Source of the DNA: Balanoglossus misakiensis
Taxonomy: Eukaryota; Animalia; Hemichordata
DNA length: 64,000 nt
Assembly (NCBI GenBank): GCA_040954595.2
Contig: CM082594.2
Location: 1,134,247 to 1,198,246 of the forward strand
Direction of reading: 5' to 3'
The notes under the pieces were generated by a model. The model saw nothing but the letters and a program-made list of their open reading frames with translations. It was not told where the DNA came from and made no database searches. Shown piece by piece: positions 33,825 through 60,943 of the stretch. The position numbers were made by a program, and so were the translations under genes. Position 1 is the stretch's first letter. Each line of letters begins with the position of its first letter.

Positions 33825-33915
33825 TGACTGACTGACTGACTGAATGGATGAATGAATGAATGAATGAATGAATGAATGAATGAATGAATGAATGAATGAA
33901 TGAATGAATGATGAA
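33825..33915. repeat. (TGAC)n/(TGAA)n microsatellite
   Basis: Direct reading of the sequence. Confidence 0.95.
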
Positions 33916-35340: not shown

Positions 35341-35633
35341 TTAAAGCGCGGGCGAAGTATGAAAAGATGCAGTAAATATCGATACATTGTATTTTGGAGG
35401 TTTCTCATAACCATGATTGGTTGGCTAATTATGCGGCGTTTTCTAAATAAAAGGAACAATATTAATTTATTGTTGGGGCTCACCTCCGTTAACATCTTGC
35501 CGTCTCTGCTGAGTGTTGGCCTCTTCCAGCGGCACGTGTTTGTCCTTTACGGCATGCTGTAAAATATTTAGAATAGCGCTGCCATTTGATCAAAGGATAA
35601 GCTGGCTTCGCGTGTTAGGGATGTGTGTCTGAC

Positions 35634-36929
35634 TACGGCGCGCCAAGTGTTTCAAAATTATTTATCATTATTTTATAGAAAATTAATGTCTTTTTTTAAA
35701 AAAATACGTAAAAAACACACAAAAAACTGATTGGTGGTTCAAAAAACAACGAGTGTAAAAAGTAATCCGTCGTGGAGTAAAAAAACAAAAAAACAAAAAA
35801 AAAAACCTAACACACACAGAAGAAAATGTCACCTGTTGTCAAAAAAAACCCACCAAGCTTACCGAAAAAAATACGTCCACAAGGCAGTTGCTCAAAAAAT
35901 CACTAATTTGTCACAAAAAAACCACGCGCACATTTTTCACGAAAAACGCACACTTCACCCCCACAAAAAATACACACAAAGTATTAAAAAGAACACTCTT
36001 TGAAAAAAAAGAGAGACTACAACTTAAAAAAATGCACACCCCCAGAACAAGCAACACAGGCAAACATAGAAAAAACACGAACATGTTAGCCATAAAAAAA
36101 CGGAGATATTTGTCACCGAAAAAAAAAACCCGCACTCATGTCACCCCAAAACTAACGGGCCACTTTTAAAAAACGCAGATGCACTGAGGTTGCAAAAATA
36201 AGCACATTTTTAATCCCCCGAAAAAAAACCAGGCAATTTGAAAAAAACGCACAGCAATTTGCAAAAAAAAAAAAAATATGAACATTTGTCACCCCAAAAA
36301 ACCAGGCAATTTGAAAAAAAAACGCAGAGCAATTTGCAAAAAAAAAATATATAGGAACATTTGTCACCCCCCCAAAAAAACAGGCAATTTGAACAAAAAA
36401 ACGCAGAGCAATTTGCAAAAAAAAAATATAGGAACATTTGTCACCCAAAAAAAAAACGCAGAGCAATTTGCAAAAAAAAAAAATAATAGGAACATTTGTC
36501 ACCCAAAAAACAGGCAATTTGAAAAAAATAAAACACGATATAAAATTTGAAAAAAAAATATATAGGCACATTTGTCACCCAAAATATTCAGGCAGATCCA
36601 AGTTGTAAAAAATGGTATATTTGTCATCCAAAAAATAAAACAAGCGTGTTTAAAAAAACGAACATTCAGTTGTAAAAATAAATAATAGTCTTTAACAACT
36701 TGAAAAAAACCCGGACGCATTTGAAAGAATAGCGTATGCGCATGCGCCGAAAAAAAAATTGAGTGAGAAATCCTGGGGAATAAATGCGCATGCGCAAAAA
36801 AAAAAAAAAGTGAACAATCCTGGCTGAAAAAAAAAAGTGAGAGATTTCGGTAGAGGAGTCTGGGTAATATTTGAAAAAAAAAACGGAGTCTGAAAATAAG
36901 TTGAGAAAAGAAAGGGGAAACACACAAAC
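35634..36929 (+). repeat. Left TIR (~1.3 kb), A-rich, with internal ~70-bp tandem subrepeats
   Basis: Reverse complement of 55642-57116. Repeated aggaacatttgtcacccaaaa..caggcaatttg..cgcagagcaatttgc. Confidence 0.95.
36739..36796. promoter_or_regulatory. Two NRF1-type GCGCATGCGC palindromes at the inner TIR end (mirrored at ~55788-55846)
   Basis: tgcgcatgcgcc at ~36737 and a perfect tgcgcatgcgca at 36785-36796, about 160 bp upstream of the transposase ATG. Confidence 0.45.
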
Positions 36930-36954
36930 CGATAAGGGTCGAAGATAAGCAAAC

Positions 36955-39675
36955 ATGGCGCCGTTATGGGATTCCTTCGTGAAGGAAGTGAAGATACTTG
37001 TTCGAGACCACAGAAACAGGTTACCGTCTGGTCTAAATGACCGGCGAGTGGTGTGTAACATGGTCGAGAGAACTGTCTCTATGATACGTTACACACTGAA
37101 CATAAGAGAAGCGGTGCAGCACCATGTAATGGCCGTTTCTGTGCAGGACATTCATTTGTTACTGGATTGCTTGAACTCTGTACATATTGCGTTGCAATCT
37201 GTTTTGGAAATATGGAGCTCTAACTCTGGAAACAGTCCTCGCTCTTGTGTTACGATTGGGAATGTTAATACGTCTCGTGATGTGAACTGTGGACTATCTG
37301 AGACTGAAACTATTCGAACTGGTGAACCTGGACGTCCACCATATGATATTGATGACAAGGTACAATTATTTATCGAATACGGGTTCAAAATGAAAGATAT
37401 CTCAGAAATGCTCCAAATATCTCGTCAAACATTATGGAGAAGATTGAAATCATTAGGGTATGATTTCACAGATAAGTACAATCCCATTAGTGATGCAGAT
37501 CTTGACATGCACATACGCAGAATCAAGGAATCGACTTTTAAGCATTGCGGAGAAAGAATCGTGGAAGGTATTCTGAGATCTATGAAAGTTTCCGTTCAAA
37601 GACAGCGAATAAGAGAAAGTCTCCAGAGGATTGAACCTCTTGAACGAGCCCTGCGTTGGCCACTCTTGAGAATGAAAAGTAAAAGGCATGGTGTGTACAA
37701 TGTGGCGGCAGCACAAAGTTTATGGCATATTGGTAAGAGTTTACATTACACAAAGTTATTATGATAGATAGTATGTACGTACATGCATGTAATGTATGTA
37801 TGTATGTATGTATGTATGTATGTATGTATGTATGTATGTATGTATGTATGCATGCATGCATGCATGCATGTAAATATGTATGTATCATGTATCTATTTAT
37901 GTATTTATCTATCTATGTAGGTGTATGCGTGTCAGTGAAATCTTAAAACCACTGCATGTTTTCAAATGGAATTATATATACGCACGAACTGGTCAAAATC
38001 TCGTGGTATACCATGGCTGGGGGTGTTTTATTGCTATTATATTATGCCAGTATATTGAAACTTTGCATAAAACATTTTAAAAAGGCATTTTCTTTGACTA
38101 TGATATATGACTGTGGTATATGGCTAATATACCATGGTCACGTGTCGTGTCTCGACCAATCAAATAGCGTGATTTACACCATCAATATACTGGTATAATA
38201 TAATACTCAATATTGAACAGTTGTCATAAAGATGCTTAAGTTAGACTCAGTCTGATACAGATACATCTTCGGTTTCGAGTAACTGAGAGTAATTGTGCAT
38301 CAAGAGCTGATTTGTATAGTTGTAGTTTAGGAAACCCTATTTAGAATGAAAAATATTTTGATCACATTTGGCCGTGTTCATATTTAATTTACATTCCAAT
38401 CAATTATGCACTTCTGAGGTACATATTTGATGTGATAAAAAAAATAATTTTCCACATCTAAATATAACTTTAAAGTGCTAAAATGTTGTACATGTCATAC
38501 ATTGAGCAATTGATCATGTGTACTCGTCTTTCAGCATATTCTTTTTATACTTAAGACTAATTTGGGTGAGGAAGCTGGAAATGCAGTTTTATGAAGTGGG
38601 CCTGCATCCCACGAAACCAAAACTGAATGCCAAACTAAATCTGAAGCTAGCTTAAGCATCATTGCCATGATGCTGTTTTTCCATGTTGATTTTATTTCTT
38701 AGTGAAACATTTACCATAATTATGTATGTGGATTGCTGCTTTTCTGAATATTGAACTTAATTAATAAGTGTGTGATATATAGTCCTCCTTGCCAATAGAA
38801 TTGATCTACGTGTACATTTATCAAGAGTTTCATAAGGCTTAATACATATTTCATTTTTTGCAGATGGCCTGGAAAAATTACAAAGATGGGGACTATATGT
38901 TCATGGTGGAATAGATGGGTATTCTAGAGTAGTTGTCTACCTCATTGCTGCCAACAACAAGATGGCATCAACTGTTTTAGATGGTTTCCTTGGTGCAGTG
39001 CAAGAATATGGCATTCCGTCCCGTGTCAGATCTGATTATGGGATGGAAAATACAACGGTTGCAGCTTTCATGCTGGCACACCGTGGAGACAACAGAGGTT
39101 CACACATTGTTGGATCATCAATTTATAATCAAAGAATTGAACGATTACATCAAGATACATTTAAATGTTGTTTGGAATACTATCGTGATGTTTTTCTACA
39201 GATGGAATGCCAGGGTCTTTTAAATCCTGATAATCCTATAGAGATACTGTGTCTTCATTTTGTTTTTCTTCCTCGTATAAATTATTCACTGACAGTTTTT
39301 AGGAAAGGCTGGAATGAACATAGATTGCAAACAGAACACAATTTGAGTCCGAATCAGCTGTGGCTGCAAAGTGTTACTGCATTCAAAAATTCTGATAAAA
39401 CTGCTATCAGAGAACTGTTAGATCCAGAGAACATAGATTATGCCACTTATGGAGTGGAAACTGACATCACTGTCAACAGTGATGAAGAATACATCACTGT
39501 CAACAGTGATGAAGAATCAAATAATGAAATGCTATCACCAACATTTGAATTGTCAAATTATGAGCAATGTTTTCAGACTCTACAGGAAAGGATAGATCCA
39601 TTAGCAGCAAGTGATGAAAAGGGTATTGATATTTACACTAGAGCATGTTCCTTAATCAGACAAATGTCATTGTAA
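36955..39675 (+). CDS. IS3EU-type integrase-core DDE transposase, 2 exons (36955-37732, 38864-39675), 529 aa, intact frame
   Basis: Spliced product: HTH region (GRPPY..KDISEMLQISRQTLWRR), then LWHI|DG..HGGIDGYSR, PSRVRSDYGMEN, NQRIERL. GT-AG intron in phase 1; 778+812 nt = 530 codons including the stop. Confidence 0.92.
37790..37885. repeat. (TATG)n/(CATG)n microsatellite in the transposase intron
   Basis: Direct reading of the sequence. Confidence 0.95.
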
Positions 39676-39890
39676 TATCCATAAAGAAATACAATCACCT
39701 CCAATTTACACATACCGGTTACCCATGTATGGTTACAAGGGTGTGTATAAATCTTTTGATAACCATGATGAAGTGGCACACTTCTTTTCACATGGCTACC
39801 TACTGAAAACAAGAGATATTAGTGGCTAAATTTCCACTTTCCATGCTGGTAACTGTGGCTTAATTTGCATCGGAGACTGTATACCTTTAA

Positions 39891-40230
39891 AGCCCCTATA
39901 GCTGCCAAATTTTGCATATTTTTTCCACAGTAAAATACTTCAAATATATTCCCTATCCTCTAAAATCCTCACCATTAAGCCATATTACTTGCATTTGCAT
40001 CAGTTTGTCATCTCTTGGCGACATATACAAATATAGCCTCGTACTGTTTGTATGGAAGCTGATTAAATCGGTGCGGCACCGTTTTCATACATGGCGTTTT
40101 CAGATCGCTACATACAGCCATGATCAGGCATCGATAAGATGTTTGTTTATACCTAACAGCAAGCTTATTTTGATGGACCAATTTAAATTAATTCATGAAA
40201 ATAATGCAAAAAGTGGCAGCTCCAGAGGCT
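39891..40230. mobile_element. Kolobok-like MITE (TTAA TSD)
   Basis: ttaa|agcccctatagctgcca ... tggcagctccagaggct|ttaa. Confidence 0.7.
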
Positions 40231-41238
40231 TTAACATGTAATGTACTTTGGCCATTTATCAAAGAGATAAGAAGAAATGAAAATGTTTGCGACATTGTTA
40301 TTATTCATTGACATTTTAATGTATCTTTTTAACTGGCAATGCTGAACTGAAGAATGTGCTCTGATTACAGCAACAAGACATCATTGCAAAAAAAAAAACA
40401 CACACTTTATTAATGGCTCAATACACCATAGAAAAAAACTTGTAAACATTTATTGATGTCAGACTTGGTATTCCACAAAATCATATAGGTAGCAGTTACT
40501 TTGTTTTCTTGTACATAAAAAAATAACAGGGACAGTGTTTAGATTGACACCTACATTTTGACCTGGTTTGAAGATTTTTGTCAATAAATGGAAATACTAA
40601 AGTCTACTGGTGTGTACAAGTAGTGCTTATATCAATCCATTTACACCAAGGTTTCAGAAAATGCCAATTTTTTCCCCTACCACAGGTCAGTACTTTATGC
40701 CATTTTAAAGCAACATTAGTAGTAACATTTTACTGTTTTATCTGTATTCTGCTTCTGTGTATTAACAGATTCTTGTTCTACTACATATGGCCGTGTTCTG
40801 GTTGTCAACATAGCCAGTGCATGTGTAATGACCGATGTTATTTTTGATAAATGCTTTTGTGTCCCAAGTTGAATGCAATTTATAATAATAATGCTTCTGT
40901 ATACACGTCAATGTTGCATTGGTAAGCTAAATAATTTAAAAAAAAAAAACGTCAAAAGTTACAGCTATTCAAGTAACCAAAGAAAAACCTTTTTCTGAGT
41001 CAGAACCATGTGGTGCTTTAATCAACAAAATTACATCCACATTAAAATGATCACCTATTTCTAGCATGATTTAAGGAATAATAAAACAGCTTTGAAACAA
41101 AAAACGAGTGAAAAAGATCACTAAAACGGCTGTGATAGGAGCTATAATAGTATAGAGCTATTTTTGCATATAAGAATAATACTCATTTTCATATAAGAAT
41201 ATTTAAATGCTTGTAAGTGAATTACAATATGACCTTAA

Positions 41239-41321
41239 CCCTTTCACCCCCAGTTCCCTCTAGAGGTCCAACCTTACCATAGAGAACAATGGATTTGGAC
41301 GGCACCAGAGAGGTGAAAGGG
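41239..41321. mobile_element. Tiny piggyBac-like MITE
   Basis: ttaa|ccctttcacc ... ggtgaaaggg|ataa. Confidence 0.55.
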
Positions 41322-41716
41322 ATAATTGTTCACCACCTCTCTGCTCTTGATGCAATCTGGTTAAAATCAGATAAGTTTGGCATTGTCTTTGGCTGTTCTG
41401 TTCTCTGTCTTTGACTTGGCTGTTCTGTTCTCTGCCGTGGCTGTTCTTGGTGTACGTGCCACACTACATCATTCTGAACCTATGCCATAGAACATCTAGT
41501 TTTGGCAAATGGATCCATTCGACCAATCACAGAGCGGCTTTCCTACCGCTTCGGAACTGGCCACGCGCTGGAAACTAACTTCTATTGTTCAAGTTTGTTT
41601 GTTTTTCCACACCTCCAGTTTTCTAAACAACCGCTCTGATAGTCTCGGTTACCCAGACGCCTTTGCTCTTCCGATGCTCTCCAGAAAAGGGTCTGGGGAA
41701 ATACTATTGAAAGCTT

Positions 41717-43792
41717 CCCTTACCAAAATCGGGTGCACCCGAAAGGCACCCAAAAGAACACACCCCGGGTGCACCTTAGGTGGCACCCGAAACACACCCC
41801 TCAGAACACACCCGAAACCACCTTAAATTGGTCACTTTAGGTGTGTTTCGGGTGTACAAAACAGGTGCATTATAGGTGCACCCGAAAGGCACCCGAAATA
41901 GAGCACACCCGAGGTGCACCTTAGGTGGCACCCGAAACACACCCGTATGATATGGTATGGATGCACCCGAAACGCACCCGGAACAACATACTCCGGGTGC
42001 ACTTTAGGTGGCACCTAAAACACACCTGAATGATATTATGGATGTATTATGCAGTTGCTGCAGTGGCTCATACACACACACACACACAATGTGAAAAAAA
42101 CAGCCAATACAATTTTTGTTAATAAAACTAAAAGTCAATATATTGCTAATTGTAAACTTAATAAAGTTCTTTTGTACAGTACAGTAAAAATAAAATGATG
42201 GATAAAATGATAGAGCTACATAGTACAGTTCGACTAGCTATGTACAAACACTTGTAATCTACACTAAGTTCGATGGAAATGTGGTCACCGTGATCAGAAT
42301 ATAGTCAGTGGTTTCACAGCAATAATTAAGTTATCCGAGGCATGCTGCTTCACATTTCTGTCCGGGAACGATATTATGCAACGTACATGCAATGTCCACG
42401 CCATTTTGAATGAACCATTCTCGCGGATGCTCGTCCATGCATCATCGTCCTTAAATGGCGATCGAGATTTCTTGTAATGAGTACGGTCAAATCAACAGCT
42501 ATCAATGGACACACCACAGGAGTAGGTGTTCGTTCAAAACGCGTTTGGTACTTACAATCGTCCGAGTCGTATCAAAACGCGATGTGTTTGAATGCGACTG
42601 TTTACTGACATCGAGAATGGCGGCCACATTGTTATGACCGCGTCGACCGATGCGCCTGATGAACGTACGTGACTGACCTCCCTTGTCATGATCTTACGTG
42701 TTTTGATATCCGCACGTCATCTCTGACGCCTAAAGTAGTCGGAACAACGAAACGATTTCACAAATTTTGCTAAAACTGCGTCGAAATGGCTTTCCGACAT
42801 TGACTTCCGTGTCTACGATGTGGACTTGCCAGTATGACTGTTTAATGACGTTATTATGAATGGACCAATCCGGTTACGTATGTTAATGACGTCCCGGGTC
42901 AAAAGTCAAGTATTGTACTTCGGCCAGTACAACTTGCAAGGGTTGTAGTTTGTGGTGAATAAATCGTGGAAAACTTTTATTAAAATCGTGATCTCCAAAA
43001 TAAAGAGACAGAACTTGATTTTGTGCGATATTCCAGTACATATAAATGGACAAAAAAAATGTTTTTTATTCCTTGGAGCTGTTAATTATTTAATAAAATG
43101 TATTCAGAAATTTTCCAACTTCAACAGATGATATAATTTTTCATCAACTAACTGATGTGAAAAAGTTGCTAAGTCTAAAGCGGGTGTGTTTTGGGTGCCT
43201 TCTCGATGTGAAAAAGTTGCAAAGTCGAAAGCGGGTGTGTTTTGAGTGCCTTCCCTATGTGAAAAAGTTGCAAAGTCTAAAGCGGGTGTGTTTTGGGTGC
43301 CTTCTCGATGTGAAAAAGTTGCAAAGTCGAAAGCGGGTGTGTTTTGGGTGCCTTCCCGATGTGAAAAAGTTGCAAAGTCGAAAGCGGGTGTGTTTTGAGT
43401 GCCTTCCCTATGTGAAAAAGTTGCAAAGTCGAAAGCGGGTGTGTTTTGGGTGCCTTCCCGATGTGAAAAAGTTGCAAAGTCGAAAGCGGGTGTGTTTTGA
43501 GTGTCTTCCCTATGTGAAAAAGTTGCAAAGTCGAAAGCGGGTGTGTTTTGGGTGCCTTAACGGCCAGTGCTGATATCAGAAGGTGTATTTCGGGTGCACC
43601 CGTAAGACACCTTTACAGTTTATGTTGTAGGGGTGGATTTCGGGTGGGTTAGACCACCCACCCAAAACCCACCTCATCTTACAGTGGTGTGTTTTAGGTA
43701 GGTTACGGGTGGGTCTAAGTGCTATTGGTGTGTTTTGGGTGTATTTTAGGTGCACCCGAGGTGCACCCGAGCACTCGGAAATTTGGTAAGGG
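41717..43792. mobile_element. Non-autonomous EnSpm/CACTA-like element C (CCC..GGG termini, 2-bp TSD TT, subterminal ggtgcacccg repeats)
   Basis: tt|cccttaccaaa ... tttggtaaggg|tt. Removing it restores gaaagctttgtaaaac, which matches the opposite TIR of element B. Confidence 0.85.
43154..43558. repeat. 51-bp minisatellite, ~8 copies, inside element C
   Basis: Unit gatgtgaaaaagttgcaaagtcgaaagcgggtgtgttttgggtgccttccc. Confidence 0.93.
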
Positions 43793-44377
43793 TTTGTAAA
43801 ACAAAATGGCCGATGTCAGGATTTTGATCATCGCCTGATTGGCTGAGCTGTCAGTATGACCCGGGTCACTGCAATAGTTTCGACAATCGTCTACTAAAGA
43901 TATTTCGTATAATTTCTCCAACAATGCTAACAGAGGACGCCTTTTGCCTTTCGCATCAACCAACAAGTACCGGTCTCTTGATATGAAGATATGACAAATA
44001 ATCACACATTGTCGAGAATCAGTGACCAAGGTCATACTGACAGCTCAGCCAATCAGGCGATGATCAAAATCCTGACATCGGCCATTTTGTTTTACAAAGC
44101 TTTCAATAGTATTTCCCCAGACCCTTTTCTGGAGAGCATCGGAAGAGCAAAGGCGTCTGGGTAACCGAGACTACCGCTCTGATTGAGATCTTCTATGGCA
44201 TAGGTTTAGATGTAGTGTGGGCGTCTCTTTTTAACAGAACAGCCAAGAATCAGCAAAAGTAAAGATGGCGCCCAACACTACATCTAATTTTAATCAGATT
44301 GCTCTTGATAATTGTACCTGTCTGGTGAGACATAATAGAAAGTCAAACTAGTCTCTGTCCCATTGTTGACCTCAGTT

Positions 44378-47300
44378 TTACATGATATGTCTGTGTCCCT
44401 TGATCATCAGTTTTGCCAGTCGGTCAGTCTGCGTCTCTTTGTTCAGAGAACCCAACATCACAGTCTGTGCATGTGTATGTGCAGTTTCCACATGGCCAGT
44501 TGTCTGTGTATTGACATTCACGCATTTCATAGATATCATCTCTGTAGTACTATCTGTCAGTTCCACATGATCAGTCTGTATCCCAATGGTTGTGTGTGTT
44601 TTGGGATCATCAACCCACTGCCCACTCAGCTGTTCTTTGACACTGTGTATGTCTTCTAGCTTTACAAGTAACAGTTCTGTCGTGTTGGATGGATTACAAA
44701 CCCGATCATCGATGCTATCCTTCATGTAGTCGATAATGCGACCACAAAGTCCTGCATTTAACTTCACACGCAATCCAGGCGGTACAGCCTCTATCAGGGC
44801 CAGGATCTCACCATCAGTACCACTTTCAAACTGGAACCCCTGCATTAGCAACTTGTTGCACACTATTTGTTTCAGATCTTCAGATGTGTATGGCTGGAAG
44901 ATCCATGGTTCCCTGAACCTTCTTAAGAGACCCTCATTAGCTGACAGCAACTTCTCCATTTCCATCTTATATCCTGCAAGAACAAATACTGGGGTATCTC
45001 TCATACAGTCACCAGTGAGATAGTGCATAAGGGTGTTTATTATGTCAACTCCAAAGTCCTTCGTAGATTTGCCTTTATATAGTGAGTATGCCTCATCAAT
45101 AAACAGCAATCCACCAGCTGCCTCTTCGATCTTTTTCTTCATTTTCTTCTCTGATTCTCCCAGATACTGAGCAACAACATTATCTCTCTGTACTTCAACA
45201 ACTTTCTCTTCCTTTAATATACCAACATCATATAAGCATCCTGAAATGGCAAAGCACAAAGTAGAACCATGACTAAAAATGCTTTTGAATTTACTGCACT
45301 GATTGCTGTATCTAGAATATAGAAATTACCAGAATAGGTTTTGACTTACATGATATGGAAATACCCCCCTCACCACTTCACTGTGTACATTTCATCTAGT
45401 TATATGACAATTGTGCGTGTGTATTCAAAGACAAACATGGAAATTATTGGAGAAGCAATGGTAATTTTAGCGACAATTTTATGACCCCCCAAAAAAAGGA
45501 AATTGCTGAGTCATCCCTTCTCCCCACTTTAGATCTTCATGGTAGAAGTTTTTAGATGAGCTGACTCCAAGACTCAAGCCGGTCTGACATAAATTTTATT
45601 TTTGCAGATATTGATTTTGATTCTCATTCTGAATTATTTCTGACAATTTCAAGAAAATGACAATATTTTATGGTGGTTTCTTGCATTTTTACACACAATC
45701 CTATGGTATAAGATAACCATGTACAGCCTATGCAAAGTGGAAAGAAACTAGGAATACTCCCTAAACTCTCTATTTATACATTGAATAAAACTTGATTTCC
45801 TATTATGGTATCATCCTTTATATTGCACCTGGAACAAAATATTAAGTAATAAAAATGAAGGTAAAACTAATTTTCTCACAGTTCTGTGAAAGTGGTACTC
45901 TGTGAAATGAAAACTGTACCATTAAATTACGAAGGGTGTTGACTTTTGCATTGTGTTTTTTGAAACATTTGAGAATTATAGGTTAAAGCCCCAGTATTTC
46001 TCGTGTGTATCCATTTTTCATCATCGAAAAATGCCCGTTTTTCCTGTACATTCATCATGGAATACTACATAATGAAGATATAAGAAAGTTTTGGGCAACT
46101 GTAGCTATATGCAAGCTGTAAATATTGCCCGTAACACTTGCCCGTAACACGGGTTTGTTTACAACGGAAATGTTGTACATCTCGATCAGCAAACGTGCCA
46201 CTTTGATATTTGATGTCAGACCATTTTCAGATTTGATCTGGTTCCATCGACTGATTTCTCCCATATAGTTATCTTCCCAGAATTTCGCCGATTTAGTGCG
46301 CATTTCTTCGCTGAGGTGCTAGATTTGGGGCGACCAAACCTCTTCCGCATAGATTCACATTTGAGTGCGCATGCGCAGTAGTCACGTGTGTCAACAGAGC
46401 CTGACTTTCTGTCCGGACAGAAAGTCATTCTTCACTCGTTATATTGTAAATTGTATGTGTTTATGAACAGAGCTGGGCATGATAACTGTTAGATTCAGAA
46501 TCAATTATCATGTACTTTTAGAAATTGAAGATGCCGTTTCAAACAAAATTTATGCGAAAACGAGAAATACTGAAGCTTTAATATTGAAAACAAATTTACA
46601 GCTTTAAAGTTTAATGAGTTCTATACATTGTAACAGATTGAATGGACACAAAAAGAAACATACCTGCCAGCAACCTAGCAAACATAGTTTTGCCTGTGCC
46701 TGGTGGCCCATAAAATAATAAATTTAGGGGCTCCTCTTCTTGTTTCTTAATTGTACTTCGGGCTTTGTTGTTTATTGCGCGGATGGCTAGCTTTTCTACT
46801 TTCTTCTTAATATCCTCCATCCCAACAACAGATTTTAGTCTTCTCCCAACTCGTCTTCTGACCAATTCTCTATTCAACTCTTTTAAGGCTGCATTCACAA
46901 ACACCTCTGGAGGGGGGGGCAGGAGAATTGAGGGGGGGGATTTGAAAAAATTGAGGGTATGTAAGGGGGGGATTTGAAATAATTTAGGGACTGAAAGGGG
47001 GGGACTTGAAAACTTTAACAACTAAATATTTATTTTGAGTCCACAAAAATGCAGTTTCGCACCCTTTAATTTACAAAATTTTCTAATGTGGGAGGGAGAC
47101 ACCCCCTCCCACACCCACCCCCTCCATTCATCAACACCTTTCAATCATTGACTGGTTTATCTAGTGACCCAGGTCAGGGGACTTGCCCCACCCCATGATA
47201 ACTTTGAGCGGCGACGGTTAAATTTGTCCTCCCCAACATACCGGTAGTTGAGTTAATTTGCTTTTGCCGGGTTCATTAAAATGCAGCTTTGAGCTCTGTA

Positions 47301-50300
47301 TTTTAGAAAATTTTCTTACGTGGGAGGGGGACACCCCCTCCCAAACCCACCCCCTTCAATTCTCGGTGTACAATGTCTCCCAACACAGAATACAAATATA
47401 TGTACTTAAAAAATAAAAACAATAAAAACAATGTTCAGTTTTAAACCCACTGATGAGGGGAAACATCAGTTTCAAATTCTTTTCATGGGAGCGCTGTTTT
47501 TCTTTTTACAAGATAGATAGGTGATGTGTTTTGCTCTGTGAAAGAAAATGGGGGGGGGGATTTCAAAATTTTGGCAGTTCGGAAGGGGGGGATTTGAAAA
47601 TATTGGCAGTTCGGAAGGGGGGCATGTGAAAATTAGCGGTAAAAAAAATTGAATTCTCCCGCCCCCCCCCTCCAGAGGTGTTTGTGAATGCAGCCTAAAA
47701 GGAAAAAAAAACACGTCCTGTCATATCAACTCTGTCCCTAAGCAGTACAGAAGGGAAATCTTCTAAATTAACAACATCAAATATAGAAGTCACATATTAT
47801 CATTTTTCCATGAGAAACAAGCCATTTATCCCTCCATTTTCAACAGCAAGGACAAAAATGGTTTGTTATCATATGATAAATATTTACCTAATCCACAACT
47901 TATTTGTCTCAAGTCAACAGAATCCTGAAGTCTGCAGGGAAAATAAAAGAAAAAAGTGGTAAAATAGTACATGTACACACTCAGTGACATTATGAAGCTT
48001 TGATTACGACAATAACCTTTACCTCTTGCCAGAATGAAGAAAAACATTGGACATATCATGAAAAGTCTTCACACATACAGATCTGTGGTAACATATTAGA
48101 ATGCTAGACAATGTCGAATGAGAATATTTGATACAGTAAACACATATTGCCTGATTACATGGAATGTGCAAAAAAATGAAAGATGTTATGTTCTGTCCTT
48201 TTACATACAACTAAAACTTTTGTTTGGATGTTTTGTCACCAGGAAAATACCTTTCTTTAGCAGATATCCTCACAGCATCACTCAGCTTTGAAGGGTAAGG
48301 ACTGAACATTTCGGCCTTTGAGTACACAGCTATTAGTGAGTAATTAAGGAAGACAAACAAAACTCTATTTTCCATTTTAGAATGACTACATGTTCATCAC
48401 TTTTACAGCCTTTAAAGTTTTCTTTGAAAGTACTGATATTCTATTTATTTTCAAAGTGTACGGTAGTTTAATGTTTACACAAGGACTGTGTAATAGTGAT
48501 CACCTACAAACAGACATTAACTGCAGAGCTTGTATCAATTTCTAAAATGGACTGCACTGAGACACTTGTGAAATACATCAAAAAATTATTGTGTACTGAT
48601 CACTTTATCCACTATAAAATCAACAGTTTTTTGTAACATGTTACATGAAGTAACAAGAAACGTGCGTCTGTTCTGGTTTCAAGAGAAAAAGGATATTGAC
48701 ACTGTCTTGTTGATTGCCTCCTTGTAGATACTTCAGAATGGCAGAAGTCATGATAAATTCAGTTACATGGTCATCATCATACATGACCCCGAACAGACAA
48801 AAACAAATGAGATGTGTTAACAATAGCAGGGAATTTGATAAGTTTTAACACATTAATATAACATGCATAGAGACTCAAACTTTATCTTTAATTGTAATTT
48901 GTCAAAGAAAGAAATTGTAAAATTATATCAATTATCACTTTTCTGCAGTCAATTACATACATGTTCTCATGAGCACCATCAATTAAGAGGCTTCACAGAC
49001 TAAATTTCACTAAAACTGATCTGTTATTGATTATTCATTCTTTTCAGTATTTAACAGCTTTACACACGAAATGATGACAAAGAAGAACATAGCAAACAGA
49101 CTATATTTACCATGTATCTGCCTCCTTCTTTACTAACAACATTATATGGCCCCTTATTTCAGAATGCACAACTATGGCAGTGACTTCCATATCAGGGGGT
49201 GACCAGAATGCAGGGAAATCTTGTGGAGACAACAGTGCTTCAGCAGTCATCGACCTCGGAATTTTTATACTCCTATTGTCCTGTAATATCACAAAAGCAT
49301 CAAACTTTTCAAAGACTAATAGTATACAATTTAAATTTATCCTAAATCATTTGCTCTACCTAGGATAAAAGAAGCTACTTATTCTTTTGGTTGACTGTAT
49401 TTAGAAAAATGTAGAAGACAATACTGCACTGGCCCCAGCTACTGTATGTGCATTGATAAGCATCCTTGTGTCTCATCTCAGTTGTCAAATCATTCATGAC
49501 CTAAAGCTTATGCCCTATAGCAACTACAGCAAAAGTCACATGTTGTGGTGCAATGAATTATACTTCACTTTCTCTTGATAATTAACATTTTTATGATCAG
49601 TCTACAGAAAGTATGAAACCTACCTTATTGCCATAACCATCATTTCTGTGAATCCCCAAACATATTAAATTGGGTTCTGTTACCCAGAAGTCAACATGCT
49701 TTACGCTGTCATCTATAATGAAGAAAACAAACAAAATGATGTTCCTTTTCCTCCCTTCTCCCTAAAGTAGAGTAAATGACAATCACTTTTTCATTTAAGG
49801 GTTTCTACTTCTGTAGTATCTCTGGGGGTAAATTGATACCGTGACAATGTCAATATTTATACAGTGACCCCTCAAAGAGAAATTATGAAAATTAACTATA
49901 TTTTCAGTTCTATATTTGTAACAGTGAAACATATAGCAAAGTAACTAAGTGTACATGTATAATCAAATAAATAAAAAACATACGTTCAGAAGGTTCAGGT
50001 GCTCCGTCTATGCTGTCTTTGATTTGGACTTTCACATTAGAAGGAATGTCTCGCCAACAATAAATCATTCTCTCTGTGAGAAAATGATTTAGCATACTGT
50101 CAATTGATGATCCTGGGTTTAGTTGAAGAACGTACCAGGGGTGTATCAAGGTAATGTATAGGAAAACTGAATATTAAATTGACAATCATCAGCAAAATCA
50201 ATGATGTCAGTATCATTTGTTATATTTTTCCCTATAAAATGATCACACCCTGAAAAGGTCTGCCCAATTTAGTTTCAAATTAATGCCCACCCCTACTTCT

Positions 50301-53300
50301 TGAAAACACATTATCTCACCATCTGTTAGTTACTACCACAGGGCAGCAACCTTTTTACTTTATATATGCGTGATAAAATCACCATACAACCATTCATAGT
50401 TTCTGAGTTTGTGTACAACAGTATTTATGGATATATATGCACTTGAACACTGGTCTCGTCAACATGAAGAATCTAGTTTGTTACAAAAATATATACTTAA
50501 GTCAGGAAATTAGCTGTAACTTTTCGATGTTTTCAGTACAGGTACTTTTGGTTTGTTTATCTCCTGCAGTTTTTTGTTCAAATCCTTATAGTATGAAGAA
50601 ATGCCCCACATTCAAAAATTTAATTAAAGTCTGGACAAGAATTTATTTGTCAACAATAACAATGGTCAATGTTACGTTACACACATACAGCCTATGTTGA
50701 TTAGTGCAGTACTAGAAATGGCATGCTGTTGTTAGAGGACCACAAAACTGCAATTGATTCACTGATCAAAAATACTGAAAATAGAGCAAACAGTTACAGC
50801 TTAAATCCCTTATAACAGCAGGGTCAAACAAAGGATATGACGATAACTGTCGTCTTCAAATTCCTCATCCTCGTAAATCCAGATCCGTCTCCGTGTACCT
50901 GCCAAAGTTGTCTGGATTACCTGTGCTAAATGCTATAAAACATGAAACGAATGAAAAAATCTATCAATTGGAAGAAAAAAAATCGCGTCAAGGACACGGT
51001 GGTCCCATTGAGGGATTACACAGGAAAATGTCTACACCAGAGTACATGGCCATATACAGACAGACAGACAGACACACACACACATAGAGAAAGAGAGAGA
51101 TCAAAGAGCAAACACTGACTGACCCATAAGCTGCCAATGGCATATGTACTGTACATACACTAAATAGAACAGCTGGCCTCTTTAAAACTTAGCCAGTTAT
51201 GTTATCATGCAGGAATTTGCTGTGTGTATAAATATCAGGAGGGGGTTCCTGCCAAATTACAAAGAACTCAATAAAGTAAATACACACACTTTGCAAAGCA
51301 ATCTGACCAGTAGTTCTTGAGTCACTGAGTTTTGACCAAATTCAAATTTTTCATTTGAACAAACTCCCATTTCAGCCCAGCCTGCATCTGCACACCAAAT
51401 ATCAAGGTGATACACGCAGCGGTTTTCAAGTTTTTTATGTGGACAGACATACAGACATCCATCCATACATACATACATACATACAGACGCAACCAATCCC
51501 ATAAGGTCCCATGGTATATATGTACATATAAATCAAATTGGACCTAAAATCTAAATCTACAGGCATGGTTTGTGGGGCCCAAGTGGTTCCCACGGAATTC
51601 CAAAGCTGTATCTGAGCCAGATAATGAGATATCAGAAAGATGGTCAAGGTCACCTAAGGTCACCAAAAACTTTTTAAATAAATTTTTGCTGGTTCATGTC
51701 CGACAAACTTGACACAGTTACATTATCAGAACAAATGTAAGACTGACCTAAAATCAATTAACACAGACAAGATTGAAAATACTGTACCTCATTTTCTGTA
51801 CACAACACTTTCAAGGTTTCGTCCAACACTTCTGCAGGGTCATACCCACCGCCAGCCATATCCCGTGGCATACACTTGAGGAAATGGCTTACTGCTGTTT
51901 CGTATTCTGCCAAACAATCCTCTTCACCAATCAAAGATATCATCTAGATTTAAATGGGAATGATAGATGAAAAAGTGTTTTATGAAAATTCCTGATATTA
52001 TATTTTTGGCTTAATAATGTTGACACTACCGTATACTGATATCAAGTATATAACCCATCCTATGGCATAGAAGAAGGTAAATTGTTATATGCTGTGAGAG
52101 ACAACTTTGCTCACTTCAGTAAAATTAGAAGTGAGAAGCTATGACTGCACACAATAACTATTTTTTAAAGAATACAGTCATAAGCTTTAATCTTTTGTAA
52201 TGGAGAGTATTTGTTAAGTTAATTTTGTAATTGTAATTATATGAAAAAAAGTATAATACATCAAAATACCTGTCAAAGGTGACATATTACCTTGAATGAA
52301 TACAAACCAATTCACTGCATGTACTGACAGAAACATAACGTCAAGAATAATAACAAATAATGAATTATCATGAAAATTGCGAAAACAATTAAAAAATCAT
52401 ATGTCACTCAGTAGGTCATCGTAATGCCCATTTAGTCTGCAATACCTAAAGACAATTTGCATAACTTGAAATGAAAAGTTTGACATACCTCAATGACAGC
52501 TTCAATACATGGACCACCAGAAACCACCTCAGATAAACATTCCATAATTGGTTTTATGCATGCAAGAAGGTGTATCACCGCATTGACTGCACAGTAATTG
52601 CCAGGGTTTGGTAGACCTGTTGTGAGAAACACACTACATATAGTGGAAGCTAGTAATTTGTTTCAATTATCAACAAGGCAATATCCCCGTCACCATCCTT
52701 TTAAAGTTTCTTGTTTTCTTGGAAAGAAGGGCACAGACATTTCTAACAAGCCAAGAGTGCATGATTGAAATTACATGTAATGGCAGAATGGTTAAAGGTC
52801 AGAAGTTGAGGGGTCATAATCTGGTAAGTATTAAGGATTTGATCACACTGAGATCAACTGATTTATGCTGGAACATAAGAAATTAGGGGATCACAGAGTG
52901 CTATCAAACCTTAGGTTTTATTTTATTGAAGATCAGCACAGCTAAACTACTATTTGGATTCTAGTACATAATGGACATTTGAACAATATATGCATGTGCA
53001 CCAACTGATCTTATCTTGCAAATTCAAGTAAACTTTACTGAGGGCAAGAACGTCATTTTTTTATATTCAAAAGTCATGACTCAATCTACATCAGACTACA
53101 TCTCCCTTGATCATGCATGTTTACTTTTTCTGACAAGGATGAATGTGTCTTTGCTGAATAAGTACTTAGGTTCACATTACCGTAATCTACAAGCTGCTCT
53201 GCACCATCAGTACAAATCATGTCTCTCAGTGTGCACTCCTACAAATAAGAAAATCATGGCATTAATTGTCTTTATGTGACTTTTGTCAATGTCACTTGTA

Positions 53301-54703
53301 TGTTAACACAATTCGACCAAAGGGGTTCACCTGTTGACATGTTAGCACCCCCTAGGAATTTGTCAGGGGGGGGGGGGCAGGACAATATTCAAAGAAATAG
53401 TTTCCATATTTTCATTTTTATCTTTCATAAATTTTGAATTGAAGCAGCTGTATTAAAAAATTGTGATGCGTACAGTTGATCAAACATAAACATACTCACT
53501 CACTCACTCACTCACAAGCACGTCATCAGCCTGAGCACAGCTCTCTTATTGAAACTAAACAACATGAGAAGACTTATTGAGCAGGATACTTACATTCTTT
53601 GGATTTCCTTTATGTCTCTTGGCAGTACTTTCCATTTGGTGGTGTTGTCTACCAATTGGACTCTGTCCAGTGGTTGATTGAGGTCCATTGCATAGGGTGT
53701 CATGAGTTGTACTTGTTAATCCCATTGGTTCACTTGATGGAGATGGCCTGTCTTCACTCGCCTGATTGGATACACTGTCTGGGAAACTTAATGGCACTAG
53801 CTGCATTGTTGTATCATCATGTATTGTACTTGTTAATCTCATTGATTCACTTGTTGGAGATGGCACAGTGTCTTCAATGGCCCGATTAGATGTGAAACTT
53901 AAAGGCTGTATAGTTGTATCATTTTCTGTTTGAAGAGGTTGGACAACGGTAGTGCATGCATATCTTTCATCCTCATGGCTTTGCAAAGTAGTAGTATTTC
54001 CTTCAATCTCAGTGGTGACTTCATCAAGTACCATGGATGGGGACTGGAGGGACGTGTCTGCAGTCACTGTACTGTTATATGTATCTACAACATTTGAACA
54101 CCTCTGATAATGCTGAATGCTGGCAGTTTCCTGGGTGTGGTCATGTTCTGAATCAAGCATGACATAGATGGTTTTATTCAAACTCCTTGTATCCCATACT
54201 GCTTTTGCCGTATATTTGAATGAGCGGGAAACGATTCGTAACTGGACTGAACCCTTGCGTGGAACATCCACAAACTTGAATTTTCCCATATAGTTTGGAT
54301 ATGCAAGGCTTATCATGTTCTGTATTTCTCGCTCCACCTGTATATCATTCCATTTACTTTCTAAGCAAATGTCACCTTTGAAAAGCCAGTCTCCATCACA
54401 GTTATGTACAGTTCCTGTTGTGTCCATCATGACTGCTTCGTCATATTTTAGCACACACAGTTTCATATGGTACATTCTTGATTTGGGTAAATATACAGCT
54501 GTGGATCGAGGAAATACAGCAGTTTTTCTTGATGTGTCCCTAGGATTTTGTGCGCGGCTGGTGTTATGTGGTGTGTTCTGTAATTGTTGTACTTGAGCTG
54601 GCTGCCTTCTTCCCCTAAATAAATTGTTTACGGCTGTTCTTACTTCAAGTGTGTCCATTGAGTCCAATGTTCTTTGTATTTCTGACCTTTGTGTATTATC
54701 CAT
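44378..54703 (-). CDS. Transposon cargo gene (~1100 aa predicted): N-terminal unknown domain + S/T-rich linker + USP (peptidase C19) deubiquitinase + CbxX/CfxQ/SpoVK-type AAA+ ATPase; this copy is probably damaged
   Basis: Exons: 54703-53594, 53238-~53125, 52616-52489 (GLPNPGNYCAVNAVIHLL), 51943-51788 (YDPAEVL), 50920-50848, 50166-49984, 49712-49624 (PNLICLGIHR), 49280-49111 (AIVVHSEIRGHIML..W), 48788-~48660 (YDDDHV), 48329-48251, 47931-47888, 46879-46664 (GPPGTGKT), 45240-44378 (AQYLGES, LLFIDEAY, AGY, NEGLLRRF). Most junctions are phase-consistent; those near 52.7-53.1 kb and 48.66 kb are unresolved. Confidence 0.78.
45987..46577. mobile_element. Kolobok-like deletion derivative in the last intron of the cargo gene
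   Basis: ttaa|agccccagtatttctcg ... cgagaaatactgaagct|ttaa. Contains an ORF remnant (MGEISRWNQIKSENGLTSNIKVARLLIE). Confidence 0.75.
46887..47695. mobile_element. PIF/Harbinger-type MITE (second copy), inserted at a 3' splice site of the cargo gene
   Basis: taa|ggctgcattcacaaacacctctgg ... ccagaggtgtttgtgaatgcagcc|taa. Confidence 0.9.
51285..51550. repeat. Short interspersed repeat ending in a (CATA)n tract (relatives at ~19010-19280 and, inverted, ~63620-63950)
   Basis: Shared cacaccaaatatcaaggtgatac ... cagacatacat motif. Confidence 0.65.
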
Positions 54704-54929
54704 TCTGATGACTTTTGGAAAGAAGATATGAAAAATATATGAAACATTATTTCACAAAGACCATAATGAGGAATAACTGTATGTTAAAATGTAACACATG
54801 AAAATATGCCATGCATCTCTATGTGAAATACTACATACAATTCAAGAATGTAAGTTAATTGTCTTGGTAAACTATCATCAACCGCTGGCGGTTGGCAGCA
54901 AGCCGCAAAGCAACACATTGCCCTGTTAC

Positions 54930-55160
54930 CACAGGGGACTCTCCCTCCGCAATTTTGTTTGTTTGTTTGTTGTTGTTGTTGATGATGATGATGATGATGA
55001 TGATTTTTGGCATAATAAACAAATACATATTTCTTTATTAATAAATATGGTTTGTTGACATGTAAGTGTTAGGGTATTATCATCATCAACAACAACAACA
55101 ACAACAAACAAACAAATAAACAAACAAACAAACAGAATCGCGGAGGGAGAGTCCCCTGTG
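54930..55160. mobile_element. P-element-like MITE (CA..TG termini, 7-bp TSD ctgttac) with inverted microsatellite arms
   Basis: ctgttac|cacaggggactctccctccgc ... gcggagggagagtcccctgtg|ctgttac. Confidence 0.85.
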
Positions 55161-55641
55161 CTGTTACATCACTCCAGCGGCGGGAATTTAGCTACCAGGG
55201 CTGTGTGTTGTTAACGGCTACGCCTCCAATCACAGCCCTGCTAAGCTACATAGCCAAACCTGGCGAAACTCAACGGATTTGTTGCGGTATGGTTTCCTTA
55301 CCAAAAACGGCCGATTTCGAACTCAAAACGTGCGTCGATCTTCGTCACACAGCCCTGTCACGCAGAGCTAACTATATGCGAAAACGATGCGAAAAGACAC
55401 AACTGAACTTTTATACTTCGGAAATAGTAGAATAAGAAAGTTCACTCGAAAACATGATTTTTTAAACATGATGCAATCCATGCAAAATAACGACTTGTCA
55501 TGCACTGCAGCTAGCCACGGTTAAAATAAACTTAAATATAACATACAGATGATACACACCTTTTGTGGATGTCGATTGATAACGATGATGCCCAAAAGAT
55601 GCTTCGGAGTTCAGTCCCACGTATCTCGACGCCTAGCAGTT

Positions 55642-57116
55642 GTTTGTGCGTTTCCCCTTTCTTTTCTCTTCTTCAATTCAACTTATTTTCAGACTCTGTT
55701 TTTTTTTTTCAAATATTACCCAGACTCCTCTACCGAAATCTCTCACTTTTTTTTTTCAGCCAGGATTGTTCACTTTTTTTTTTTTTTTGCGCATGCGCAT
55801 TTATTCCCCAGGATTTCTCACTCATTTTTTTTTCGGCGCATGCGCATACGCTATTCTTTCAAATGCGTCCGGGTTTTTTTCAAGTTGTTAAAGACTATTA
55901 TTTATTTTTACAACTGAATGCTCGTTTTTTTAAACACGCTTGTTTTATTTTTTGGATGACAAATATACCATTTTTTACAACTTGGATCTGCCTGAATATT
56001 TTGGGAGACAAATGTGCCTATATATTTTTTTTTCAAATTTTATATCGTGTTTTTTTTTCTCAAATTGCCTGTTTTTCTGGGTGACAAATGTTCCTATATT
56101 TTTTTTTTTTTTGCAAATTGCTCTGCGTTTTTTTTTTCAAATTGCCTGTTTTTTGGGGGGTGACAACTGTTCCTATATTTTTTTTTTGCAAATTGCTCTG
56201 CGTTTTTTTTGTTTTTTTTTTCAAATTGCCTGTTTTTTTGGGTGACAAATGTTCGTATTATTTTTTTTGCAAATTGCTCTGCGTTTTTTTTTTCAAATTG
56301 CCTGTTTTTTTGGGTGACAAATGTTCCTATTTTTTTTTTTTTTTGCAAATTGCTCTGCGTTTTTTTTTTAAATTGCCTGGTTCTATTTTTTTTTTTTTTT
56401 TTGCAAATTGCTCTGCGTTTTTTTTAATTGCCTGCTTTTTTGGGTGACAAATGTTCTTATTATTTTTTTTTTTTGCAAATGCTGTGCGTTTTTTTTTTCA
56501 AATTGCCTGTGTTTTTTTTTTCGGTGGATTATAAATTTGCTTATTTTTGCAACCTCAATGCATCTGCGTTTTTTTTAAGTGGCCCGTTAGTTTTGGGGTG
56601 ACATGAGTGCGGGTTTTATCGGTGACAAATATCTCCGTTTTTTTATGGCTAACATGTTCGTGTTTTTTCTATGTTTGCCTGTGTTGTTTGTTCTGGGGGT
56701 GTGCATTTTTTTCAAGTTGTAGTCTCTCTCTCTCTCTCTTTTTTTTTACAAAGAGTGTTCTTTTTAATACTTTGTGTGTATTTTTTGTGGGGGTGAAGTG
56801 TGCGTTTTTCGTGAAAAATGTGCGCCTCTTTTTTTGTCACAAATGAGTGATTTTTTGAGCAACTGCCTTGTGGACGTATTTTTTTCGGTAAGCTTGGTGG
56901 GGTTTTTTTGACAACAGGTGACATTTTCTTCTGTGTGTGTTAGGTTTTTTTTTTTGTTTTTTTGTTTTTTTACTCCACGACGGATTACTTTTTACACTCG
57001 TTGTTTTTTGAACCACCAATCAGTTTTTTGTGTGTTTTTTACGTATTTTTTTAAAAAAAGACATTAATTTTCTATAAAATAATGATAAATAATTTTGAAA
57101 CACTTGGCGCGCCGTA
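55642..57116 (-). repeat. Right TIR (~1.47 kb) of the giant element
   Basis: Reverse complement of 35634-36929 with extra subrepeat copies. ORFs 35731(+) and 57019(-) translate identically at their starts. Confidence 0.95.
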
Positions 57117-57155
57117 GTCTGACGACTATGCCTCGAAGCAAAAGACACAGCCGAC

Positions 57156-60100: not shown

Positions 60101-60943
60101 GCAAATTGCTCTGCGTTTTTTTTTTCAAATTGCCTGGTTTTTTTTGGGTGACAAATGTTCCTATATTTTTTTTTTTCAAATTGCTCTGCGTTTTATTTTT
60201 TCAAATTGCATGTTTTTTTTGGGGTGACAAATGTTCCTATTTTTTTTTGCAAATTGCTCTGCGTTTTTTTTTCAAATTGCCTGGTTTTTTTGGGGTGACA
60301 AATGTTCCTATTTTTTTTTTGCAAATTGCTGTGCGTTTTTTTCAAATTGCCTGGTTTTTTTTTTCGGGGGATTAAAAATGTGCTTATTTTTGCAACCTCA
60401 GTGCATCTGCGTTTTTTAAAGCGGTCCGTTAGTTTTGGGGTGACATGAGTGCGGGTTTTTTTCGGTGACAAATATCTCAGTTTTTTATGGCTAACATGTT
60501 CGTGTTTTTTCTATGTTTGCCTGTGTTGTTTGTTCTGGGGGTGTGCATTTTTTTCAAGTTGTAGTCTCTCTTTTTTTTCAAAGAGTGTTCTTTTTAATAC
60601 TTTGTGTGTATTTTTTGTGGGGATGAAGTGTGCGTTTTTCGTGAAAAATGTGCGCGTGGTTTTTTGTGACAAATAAGTGATTTTTTTTTCAACTGCCTTG
60701 TGGGCGTATTTTTTGGTGAGCTTGGTGGTTTTTTTTACAATAGGTGAGATTTTCTTCTGTGTGTGTTAGTGTTTTTTTGTTTTTTTTGTTGTTTTTTTGA
60801 CTCCACGGTGGATTACTTTTTACACTCGTTGTTTTTTAAACCACCAATCAGTTTTTTGTGTTTTTTACGTATTTTTTTTGTTAAAAGACATCAATTTTCT
60901 ATAAAATAATGATAAATAATTTTGAAACACTTGGCGCGCCGTA
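57156..60943. mobile_element. Non-autonomous 3.8-kb derivative of the same IS3EU-type family; arms 57156-58803 / 59391-60943
   Basis: Termini tagggcgcgccaagtg ... cacttggcgcgccgta. Flanks gccgac / cccgac (6 bp, 1 mismatch). Confidence 0.9.

Follow-up and report, generated by a model that had tools for sequence, protein, structure and literature searches.

A giant IS3EU-type transposon of Balanoglossus misakiensis with a predicted USP-like protease/AAA+ ATPase gene facing its transposase

Within a 64,000-nucleotide stretch of the Balanoglossus misakiensis genome (assembly GCA_040954595.2, contig CM082594.2, positions 1,134,247 to 1,198,246; referred to below as the window), a transposon of 21,483 bp (35634-57116) carries, in addition to its transposase gene, a second gene whose predicted product joins a ubiquitin-specific protease (USP)-like domain to an AAA+ ATPase. 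The locus raises the question of whether this cargo gene is a regular component of the mobile unit and, if so, on what its product acts. The reading that we favour, with a probability of roughly 0.6, is that the cargo of this lineage, composed of a ubiquitin-like domain, a USP and a CbbX/EccA1-type motor, most likely acts on the element's own transposase. The features of the locus are collected in Table 1.

The element starts with TAC and ends with GTA, its terminal inverted repeats (TIRs; 1.3-1.5 kb) are 96.0% identical over 1320 aligned columns, and the 7-mer gtctgac directly adjoins both ends (p ~1e-4 for a chance repeat of a 7-mer at both flanks). Two contigs of the public run X1 diverge from the window after position 35633, and their next 11 letters are those of 57124-57134; these contigs therefore represent an empty site with a single copy of the 7-mer. 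The TIRs and the flanking duplication, both noted in the original prediction (an annotation made from the DNA letters alone), were thereby confirmed.

The element has inserted into a dispersed repeat of high copy number, which occupies 32561-35633 and resumes at 57124-57156 and probably again from 60944; the depth of its left-flank part in X1 is ~12 times that of the element interior. Given the abundance of this repeat, the two contigs may stem from a paralogous repeat copy and not from an allele; in either case the empty site settles the ends of the element and the 7-bp duplication. Since the 7-mer is nearly palindromic, target site duplications (TSDs) of 5 or 6 bp combined with longer termini were also weighed, but they were ruled out, as the empty site fits 7 bp and TAC..GTA. 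The TSD of this copy is 7 bp long, in comparison with the usual 6 bp of IS3EU/GingerRoot elements. The insertion is best explained as recent. Nested repeats account for ~4 kb of the element length, and much of the remainder is made up of introns.

The transposase gene begins with an ATG at 36955, located 25 bp past the inner end of the left TIR, and its two joined exons encode a protein of 529 aa without a single internal stop, which agrees with the intact spliced gene foreseen originally. The splice junction is matched by a protein (P0271) of the acorn worm Ptychodera flava. The product gave a Pfam match to rva_4 (E 8.8e-67), it carries the triad D260, D317, E352 (DD34E), and its motifs agree with two Repbase IS3EU rows (supplement of PMC10045372). 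In exon 1 the Pfam scan (to E 0.1) revealed helix-turn-helix (HTH) families only (E 3e-4 to 0.06, under the cut-off) and no HHCC zinc domain, and the first Asp, at position 260, is located within the 100-300 residues from the N-terminus that are typical of the group.

The hallmarks of IS3EU/GingerRoot elements are TA..TA ends, usually a 6-bp TSD and the lack of an HHCC domain (PMC10045372), while for GingerRoot a TSD of 6-8 bp is accepted, 7 bp being found in 5 of 77 copies (PMC6839031). The element described here shares with this group the DDE core motifs, TA..TA termini placed on TIRs, a TSD within the 6-8 bp range, the lack of the HHCC domain, a GC-rich target and an aquatic-animal range. 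In contrast, the TIRs of Selaginella GingerRoot elements are 100-150 bp long, against 1.3-1.5 kb here, and their size is 3.9-12.9 kb, against 21.5 kb (PMC6839031). We have practically no doubt that this is a real cut-and-paste element of the IS3EU/GingerRoot type, so the IS3EU assignment made at the outset stands.

The cargo gene is located on the minus strand and is composed of 14 exons (from 54703 to 44378), convergent to the transposase gene; its ATG (54703) lies 0.94 kb interior to the right TIR, where ~0.9 kb had been predicted. The frame is open in all four donor variants tried (1106-1126 aa; ~1122 aa). The deduced protein consists of an N-terminal helix, a domain at aa ~72-185, a Ser/Thr-rich linker, a USP-like domain (aa ~390-695) and an AAA+ module (aa ~775-1040). 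The USP-like domain carries N393, C398 (encoded by exon 3), H646 and D662, with a spacing that is presumably the USP spacing, as in USP7. The AAA+ motifs are placed at aa 821-828, 859-863, 882-887 and 938-944 of the window model, and the Walker A, Walker B, pore-loop Tyr and Arg-finger region are all intact.

The best PDB relatives of the AAA+ module, found with the 80% identical protein P0123 as the query, were EccA1 (E 1.1e-32) and CbbX (E 6e-30), whereas p97-like proteins scored far lower with the same query (E 1e-14 to 1e-15). Among the 120 of 360 matches listed for the AAA exon, the long proteins were mostly of the multi-AAA, SpoVK type. Judged by its sequence, the motor is of the CbbX/EccA1/SpoVK type and not of the ClpX type; the likeness to ClpX put forward in the original prediction consequently holds as an analogy in the way of working, but not as a family relationship. 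CbbX (PDB 3syk/3zuh), EccA1 (PDB 9lur) and SpoVK have the Walker A/B motifs, pore-loop Tyr, Arg-finger region and lid in common with the cargo, but in the latter, unlike CbbX and EccA1, a single AAA+ module is placed behind a protease in an animal transposon, with no Rubisco or ESX context. By analogy with this family, the cargo module would form a hexameric ring that threads its substrate.

In the case of the domain at aa ~72-185, the predicted structure has a beta-grasp topology, modelled with low confidence (pLDDT 52). The top Foldseek rows were ubiquitin-like, PB1 and related folds (none with E <0.001), VIA gave Z values of at most 5.3 (rmsd 3.4-4.6 Å over 81-87 residues), and ESM Atlas pointed weakly to eukaryotic clusters without a name (0.90, recognition 2202). 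These comparisons hint faintly at a ubiquitin-like domain.

Metagenome loci were fetched with the transposase alignment, and the results below refer to the best 80 of at least 506 confirmed loci; a single-sequence transposase scan of metagenomes gave 130 pattern matches and no relatives. One of the 80 loci, the contig L002, contains an intronless pair of open reading frames (ORFs) which faces the transposase and is collinear with aa 461-984 of the cargo (tblastn E 6e-39), the transposases of L002 and the window being 43-46% identical. The protease part of L002 scored 80 (best shuffle, 55) and the part following the His box 64 (best shuffle, 48); neither score was reached in any of 1000 shuffles. 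The collinearity and the shuffle tests support both the chain of exons and the protease-ATPase fusion without recourse to the splice model. In ESM Atlas the L002 protease part was placed with UCH/USP clusters (0.95, recognition 2803), and all 10 best named matches belonged to one family/clan.

The nearest ESM Atlas clusters of the L002 USP-like part (L002:3714-4475, minus strand) were those of Nucleocytoviricota. A viral-contig scan with the L002 AAA ORF gave 50 pattern matches and no relatives, and a giant-virus origin of the cargo is a lead only.

A second, likely occurrence was found in P. flava. The protein XP_070533300 (P0121) was the sole match to the N-terminal domain among 84 candidates (63% identity), and it follows cargo exons 1, 2 and 3, after which the frame slips. 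The best of 410 transposase matches was also a P. flava protein, XP_070533302 (80%), which is encoded on the same 40,314,384-bp sequence and is two accession numbers apart from XP_070533300, while another transposase of this chromosome is ~1400 accession numbers away. Judging from these numbers, the cargo and transposase homologues are likely to be adjacent. Homologues of the cargo AAA module (80% and 40%) are present on two further P. flava chromosomes, which indicates that the cargo gene is dispersed and not single-copy. Together with the layout of L002, this speaks against a single-copy syntenic host gene, the possibility by which the original prediction could have been overturned, and the predicted two-gene unit with its USP-like/AAA+ accessory protein gains support from its recurrence. 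Apart from P0121, none of the 270 fetched proteins matches aa 1-775 of the cargo.

In trees of the fetched relatives only, without the Repbase IS3EU reference rows, the window transposase belongs to a clade of 11 rows, comprising P0271, three other hemichordate proteins, the metagenome loci L001-L003 and three proteins without a name. A quick tree of 92 rows gave this clade an SH-aLRT support of 97, and on 169 core columns FastTree recovered the same 11 rows at 0.887. The domains of the cargo are 63-80% conserved in comparison with P. flava and the linker is not, which is the pattern expected under selection. It is very probable that the USP-AAA cargo belongs permanently to one IS3EU sub-lineage and did not result from a one-off capture.

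A comparison with the remaining IS3EU loci revealed what usually occupies the position of the second gene. Eight of the 122 minus-strand ORFs (at least 130 aa) of the fetched loci matched Pfam HECT, and a profile of these eight detected a HECT-like ORF at 38 of the 80 loci, nearly all of them convergent; when only the 38 loci having at least 2 kb of downstream DNA are counted, the HECT-like partner is present at 28. It is common for IS3EU relatives to have a convergent partner from the ubiquitin system, namely a HECT ligase, a point that the original prediction did not contain. No HECT was seen in the 11-row clade, where the downstream DNA of L001 and L003 amounts to only 1303 and 864 bp, respectively.

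Fungal IS3EU elements carry alpha-kinase and TET/JBP genes (PMC12730594). In these elements, in the HECT-bearing ones and in the element described here, the second gene lies opposite the transposase and encodes an enzyme of the ubiquitin system or of signalling; the HECT ligase is, however, a ubiquitin writer, whereas the present cargo is a predicted eraser combined with an ATP-driven motor. IS3EU elements seem to have an exchangeable slot for their second gene, filled by (i) a HECT ligase, (ii) a kinase or TET gene, or (iii), as now found, a USP-AAA gene.

The HECT partners start with a small domain of a size and pattern similar to those of the cargo N-terminal domain. An hhalign comparison of the two gave 18.75, against a shuffle 95th percentile of 15.35 and a maximum of 21.14; one of the three rows of the N-terminal-domain profile A2 is probably spurious. 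With a score within the shuffle range, common descent of the slot, as traced through these domains, is a lead only. The N-terminal domains of the HECT partners are of two distinct small types without a Pfam match (one in L013, L023, L028, L055, L061 and L080, the other in L033 and L073); both look ubiquitin-like by pattern and may represent a conserved docking module of the second gene. At L021 an ORF without a Pfam match (L021:13778-14683, minus strand) faces the IS3EU transposase, and inspection by eye revealed a Ulp1-like His...Gln/Cys arrangement followed by a PHD-like Cys-rich stretch; this is possibly a third kind of ubiquitin/SUMO-system partner.

The window copy of the cargo gene has a probable splicing defect, also absent from the original prediction. 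The acceptor of exon 9 is without AG in this copy, with no AG up to 72 nt upstream, and an 812-bp Harbinger-like miniature inverted-repeat transposable element (MITE) sits between the pyrimidine tract of exon 13 and its AG; in addition, exons 5 and 9 have weak donors, the precise positions of which are ambiguous. On this sequence, the window copy is likely to yield no full-length cargo protein. In contigs of the runs X1 and X2 (one sample) another letter at 48790 restores the AG, and 46883 is joined to 47696, the MITE being absent; elsewhere these contigs diverge from the window by ~0.3%. Sister copies or alleles free of both splice lesions therefore exist. Many single variant contigs were seen in X1 at a depth of 25-130. 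Depth as a proof of copy number was dropped, since the interior of the element (308-340 in X1) and a contig outside it (32372-32590; 307) are equally deep. In the runs X3 and X4 (organism B) only short repeats were matched, and neither gene.

How, then, might the two proteins cooperate? The transposase would bind the long TIRs, excise the element and insert it with a 6-7 bp stagger, and it would also mobilise non-autonomous derivatives. The accessory protein would assemble into a ring by means of its AAA+ module, and its N-terminal domain would target it either to the transposase or to proteins at the transposition complex that carry ubiquitin. There, the USP domain would trim ubiquitin, allowing the transposase to escape degradation, and the pore-loop Tyr would exert a pull that loosens the highly stable complex left after insertion, in the manner of CbbX acting on inhibited Rubisco. 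CbbX, the red-type Rubisco activase, threads its substrate with a pore Tyr and so frees a locked complex (PMC5437159), and for the VTD deubiquitinases of Helitrons protection of transposition proteins from the proteasome has been proposed (PMC9741609).

The element's own transposase is proposed as the substrate because this is the simplest account of the long co-inheritance of both genes; by analogy, we tentatively take the transposase, or the transpososome, to be the main target. ClpX disassembles the transpososome of phage Mu, an ATP-driven release of a stable nucleoprotein complex that would work in a similar way, as would Cdc48/p97 with its associated deubiquitinases (DUBs), where the trimming of ubiquitin is coupled to extraction. 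ClpX and Cdc48/p97 are, however, host machines from other AAA+ clades, whereas the motor and the protease considered here are encoded by the element in one chain. In its most far-reaching form, which we regard as doubtful, the proposal would be that an IS3EU lineage swapped the ligase for a self-contained "deubiquitinating segregase", which rescues and then dismantles its own transpososome and has been kept across distant animals. If true, a eukaryotic transposon would possess its own equivalent of ClpX, and the protein would represent a new AAA+/DUB enzyme architecture.

Several observations weigh against the favoured reading. As regards the protease, Pfam UCH was matched only at E 0.086, under the cut-off, and on one exon (exon 3, UCH positions 1-30); the window exon with the divergent His box and the L002 protease ORF gave no Pfam match, neither exon 3 nor the L002 protease ORF retrieved a USP from the PDB by sequence, and the AlphaFold model of this ORF (pLDDT 38) was too low for use. 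L002 is without the His of the His box and contains one frameshift, and its contig stops short of the Cys box and of any TIR. P0121 has a frameshift at the exon encoding the Cys box, and the adjacency in P. flava is a matter of accession numbers only, the orientation, TIRs and protease exons lying outside the data seen. The USP-AAA partner was directly seen in only 1 of the 80 loci, and L001 and L003 end, at the distances given above, without any partner.

The spliced model, for its part, requires one non-AG acceptor and two weak donors, the depth in X1 does not set the element apart from its surroundings, and the ubiquitin-like assignment depends on the pLDDT-52 model and its low Z values. 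No result obtained here identifies a substrate, and the prediction of a complex between cargo aa 1-200 and two transposase halves was uninformative (median 0.01). We predict, with moderate confidence, that the USP-type protease is catalytically active in this family.

The same standing cargo might instead serve against silencing, by acting on host chromatin or a repressor at the TIRs, where it would strip ubiquitin marks and evict silencers. The TET/JBP dioxygenases of other IS3EU lineages have been read as anti-silencing cargo (PMC12730594), and both genes of the element begin beside a copy of the same long TIR, so that they would have in common a promoter which has to stay open. We consider this explanation unlikely, as no chromatin-reader or DNA-binding domain was found by Pfam in the cargo exons scanned, and CbbX-type motors are known as remodellers of one tight protein complex.

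It is also conceivable that catalysis is dispensable: the USP fold would then be a ubiquitin-binding adaptor (a pseudo-DUB), and the ATPase would extract a ubiquitinated transposase or host protein in the manner of Cdc48/p97. All four catalytic positions are present in the window copy, which makes such a ubiquitin-reading segregase quite unlikely, even though its His box is divergent and was missed by Pfam. In L002, which lacks the His-box His, the signature of the fold persists and the AAA+ module is intact, as would be the case for a segregase, but with its frameshift this copy may be decaying.

That the cargo is a passenger, a host gene captured in the style of Pack-MULEs and without a role in transposition, is very improbable: GingerRoot elements often hold host gene fragments (PMC6839031), and the window gene is rich in introns, as host genes are, and is damaged in this copy, but the same gene is found on the same side and in the same orientation beside transposases that are 43-46% identical, with 13 introns in the window and none over the shared stretch in L002, its carriers group in one transposase clade, and no stand-alone protease+ATPase host homologue is present among the 270 fetched proteins.

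Ubiquitin proteases in other transposon superfamilies, as well as two-gene IS3EU elements, are already known. Ulp1/OTU proteases occur in MuDR, EnSpm, Zisupton, Ginger1 and Dada transposons. Helitrons and Helentrons with VTD and OTU proteases (PMC9741609) are likewise DNA transposons equipped with a ubiquitin-system cysteine protease, whereas the protease described here is USP/C19-like, encoded by a separate gene and fused to an AAA+ motor. Since two-gene IS3EU elements are known and a HECT partner is common, the novelty lies in the swap of the partner and not in the layout.

Apparently undescribed are the fusion of a USP-like with a CbbX-type module and the restriction of this fusion to a single IS3EU clade. 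In agreement with the original prediction, which knew of no element with this cargo, no description of an IS3EU USP-like/AAA+ fusion was found in the literature searched, a search that had Repbase, Dfam, bioRxiv supplements and most subscription papers outside its scope. Within it we found no paper combining transposon, ubiquitin-specific protease, AAA ATPase and TIRs, none linking CbbX, metazoa and transposon, and none linking IS3EU and HECT. The accessible text of PMC6839031 has 0 matches for "ubiquitin", "ATPase" or "protease", and such cargo is not mentioned in the accessible parts of PMC10045372, PMC9587614 or 10.1101/2021.09.26.461848.

How transposases evade ubiquitin-dependent destruction and how product complexes come apart are open questions in eukaryotes, and a transposon encoding both an eraser and a motor would provide a two-gene system for testing them directly. 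The swappable second-gene slot suggests that control of protein fate is a standing need of the IS3EU superfamily. With this cargo, moreover, a CbbX-type motor, a kind of protein known mostly in bacteria and algae, is found in animal genomes, where automated annotation leaves such genes as "uncharacterized" fragments.

Table 1. Coordinates of the features of the transposon and its immediate surroundings (positions in the window)
Feature	Position	Strand	Remark
Left TSD (7 bp)	35627..35633	+	one copy at empty site, 2 contigs of run X1
Left TIR (~1.3 kb), starts TAC, A-rich subrepeats inside	35634..36929 (inner edge approximate)	+	96% to right TIR
Transposase exon 1: N-terminal extension, HTH region, ends at first catalytic Asp codon	36955..37732	+
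Transposase exon 2: integrase core, D260/D317/E352 (DD34E)	38864..39675	+	rva_4 match
Nested high-copy repeats between both genes, outside two-gene core	41235..44301		contig loose ends 41235, 44301
Cargo exon 14: AAA+ core (pore loop, Walker B, Arg-finger region, lid), low-complexity tail	44378..45240	-
Cargo exon 13: AAA+ start with Walker A	46664..46879	-
Harbinger-like MITE, inverted ends, TAA duplication, just upstream of exon-13 acceptor	46884..47695
Cargo exons 10-12, protease-ATPase linker	48329-48251, 48082-48023, 47931-47888	-
Cargo exon 9: Asp662 region, end of USP-like domain	48655..48788	-	acceptor without AG here (48790), donor weak
Cargo exons 3-8, predicted USP-like protease domain	49111..52616	-
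Cargo exon 8, His box	49280-49111	-
Cargo exon 7	49712-49624	-
Cargo exon 6	50166-49984	-
Cargo exon 5	50920-50842 or 50830	-	weak donor
Cargo exon 4	51943-51788	-
Cargo exon 3, Cys box	52616-52489	-
Cargo exon 2	53181..53238	-	matched by P. flava P0121
Cargo exon 1 (370 aa): conserved N-terminal helix, predicted beta-grasp/ubiquitin-like domain aa ~72-185, Ser/Thr-rich linker	53594..54703	-
Right TIR (~1.47 kb), last letters GTA	55642 (approximate)..57116	-	alignment to left TIR
Right TSD (7 bp)	57117..57123	+
Non-autonomous derivative of same family	57157..60943		arms 92-94% to element TIRs; flanks match 5/6 bp

A non-autonomous derivative of the same family is located 34 bp to the right of the element, and each of its long arms runs into the 5' end of the transposase gene; its target site fits a 6-bp TSD with one mismatch. 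With this derivative, the family has moved at least two times at this place. The derivative is built from two left ends of the family, and its left terminus is TAG, not TAC. The target sites of the element and of the derivative both end with GAC, which hints at local hopping or a target preference.

The nested repeats between the two genes are composed of an outer MITE-like repeat and an inner element with 77-bp inverted ends (41640-41716/44097-44173); they include a 51-bp tandem array, and contigs join 41411/41450 to 44233. The Harbinger-like MITE that interrupts the cargo gene has another copy in the window (22545-23355), 92% identical and with the same TAA duplication.

To the left of the element, a spliced RAG1-like/Chapaev-type transposase gene was identified at 26278-32009 (minus strand); the ends of an element were looked for around this gene and not found. 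An ORF at 30816-32009 matches RAG1_imp_bd (E 1.1e-9) and contains a RING finger, DUF1280 is matched at 29192-29461 (E 3e-11), and further core-like exons extend down to 26278. The gene contains an insert in the form of a 229-bp perfect hairpin (28547-29024).

Another dispersed repeat is represented by three partial copies (14452-15250, 20749-22397 and 61698-63549) that are 81-96% alike. The last two form inverted repeats, which were considered as the bounds of a larger element, but this was unsupported, as they look like copies of the dispersed repeat. The left end of the window (1-~12200) is occupied by a very homogeneous 86-bp satellite, with ~140 copies at 99% identity.

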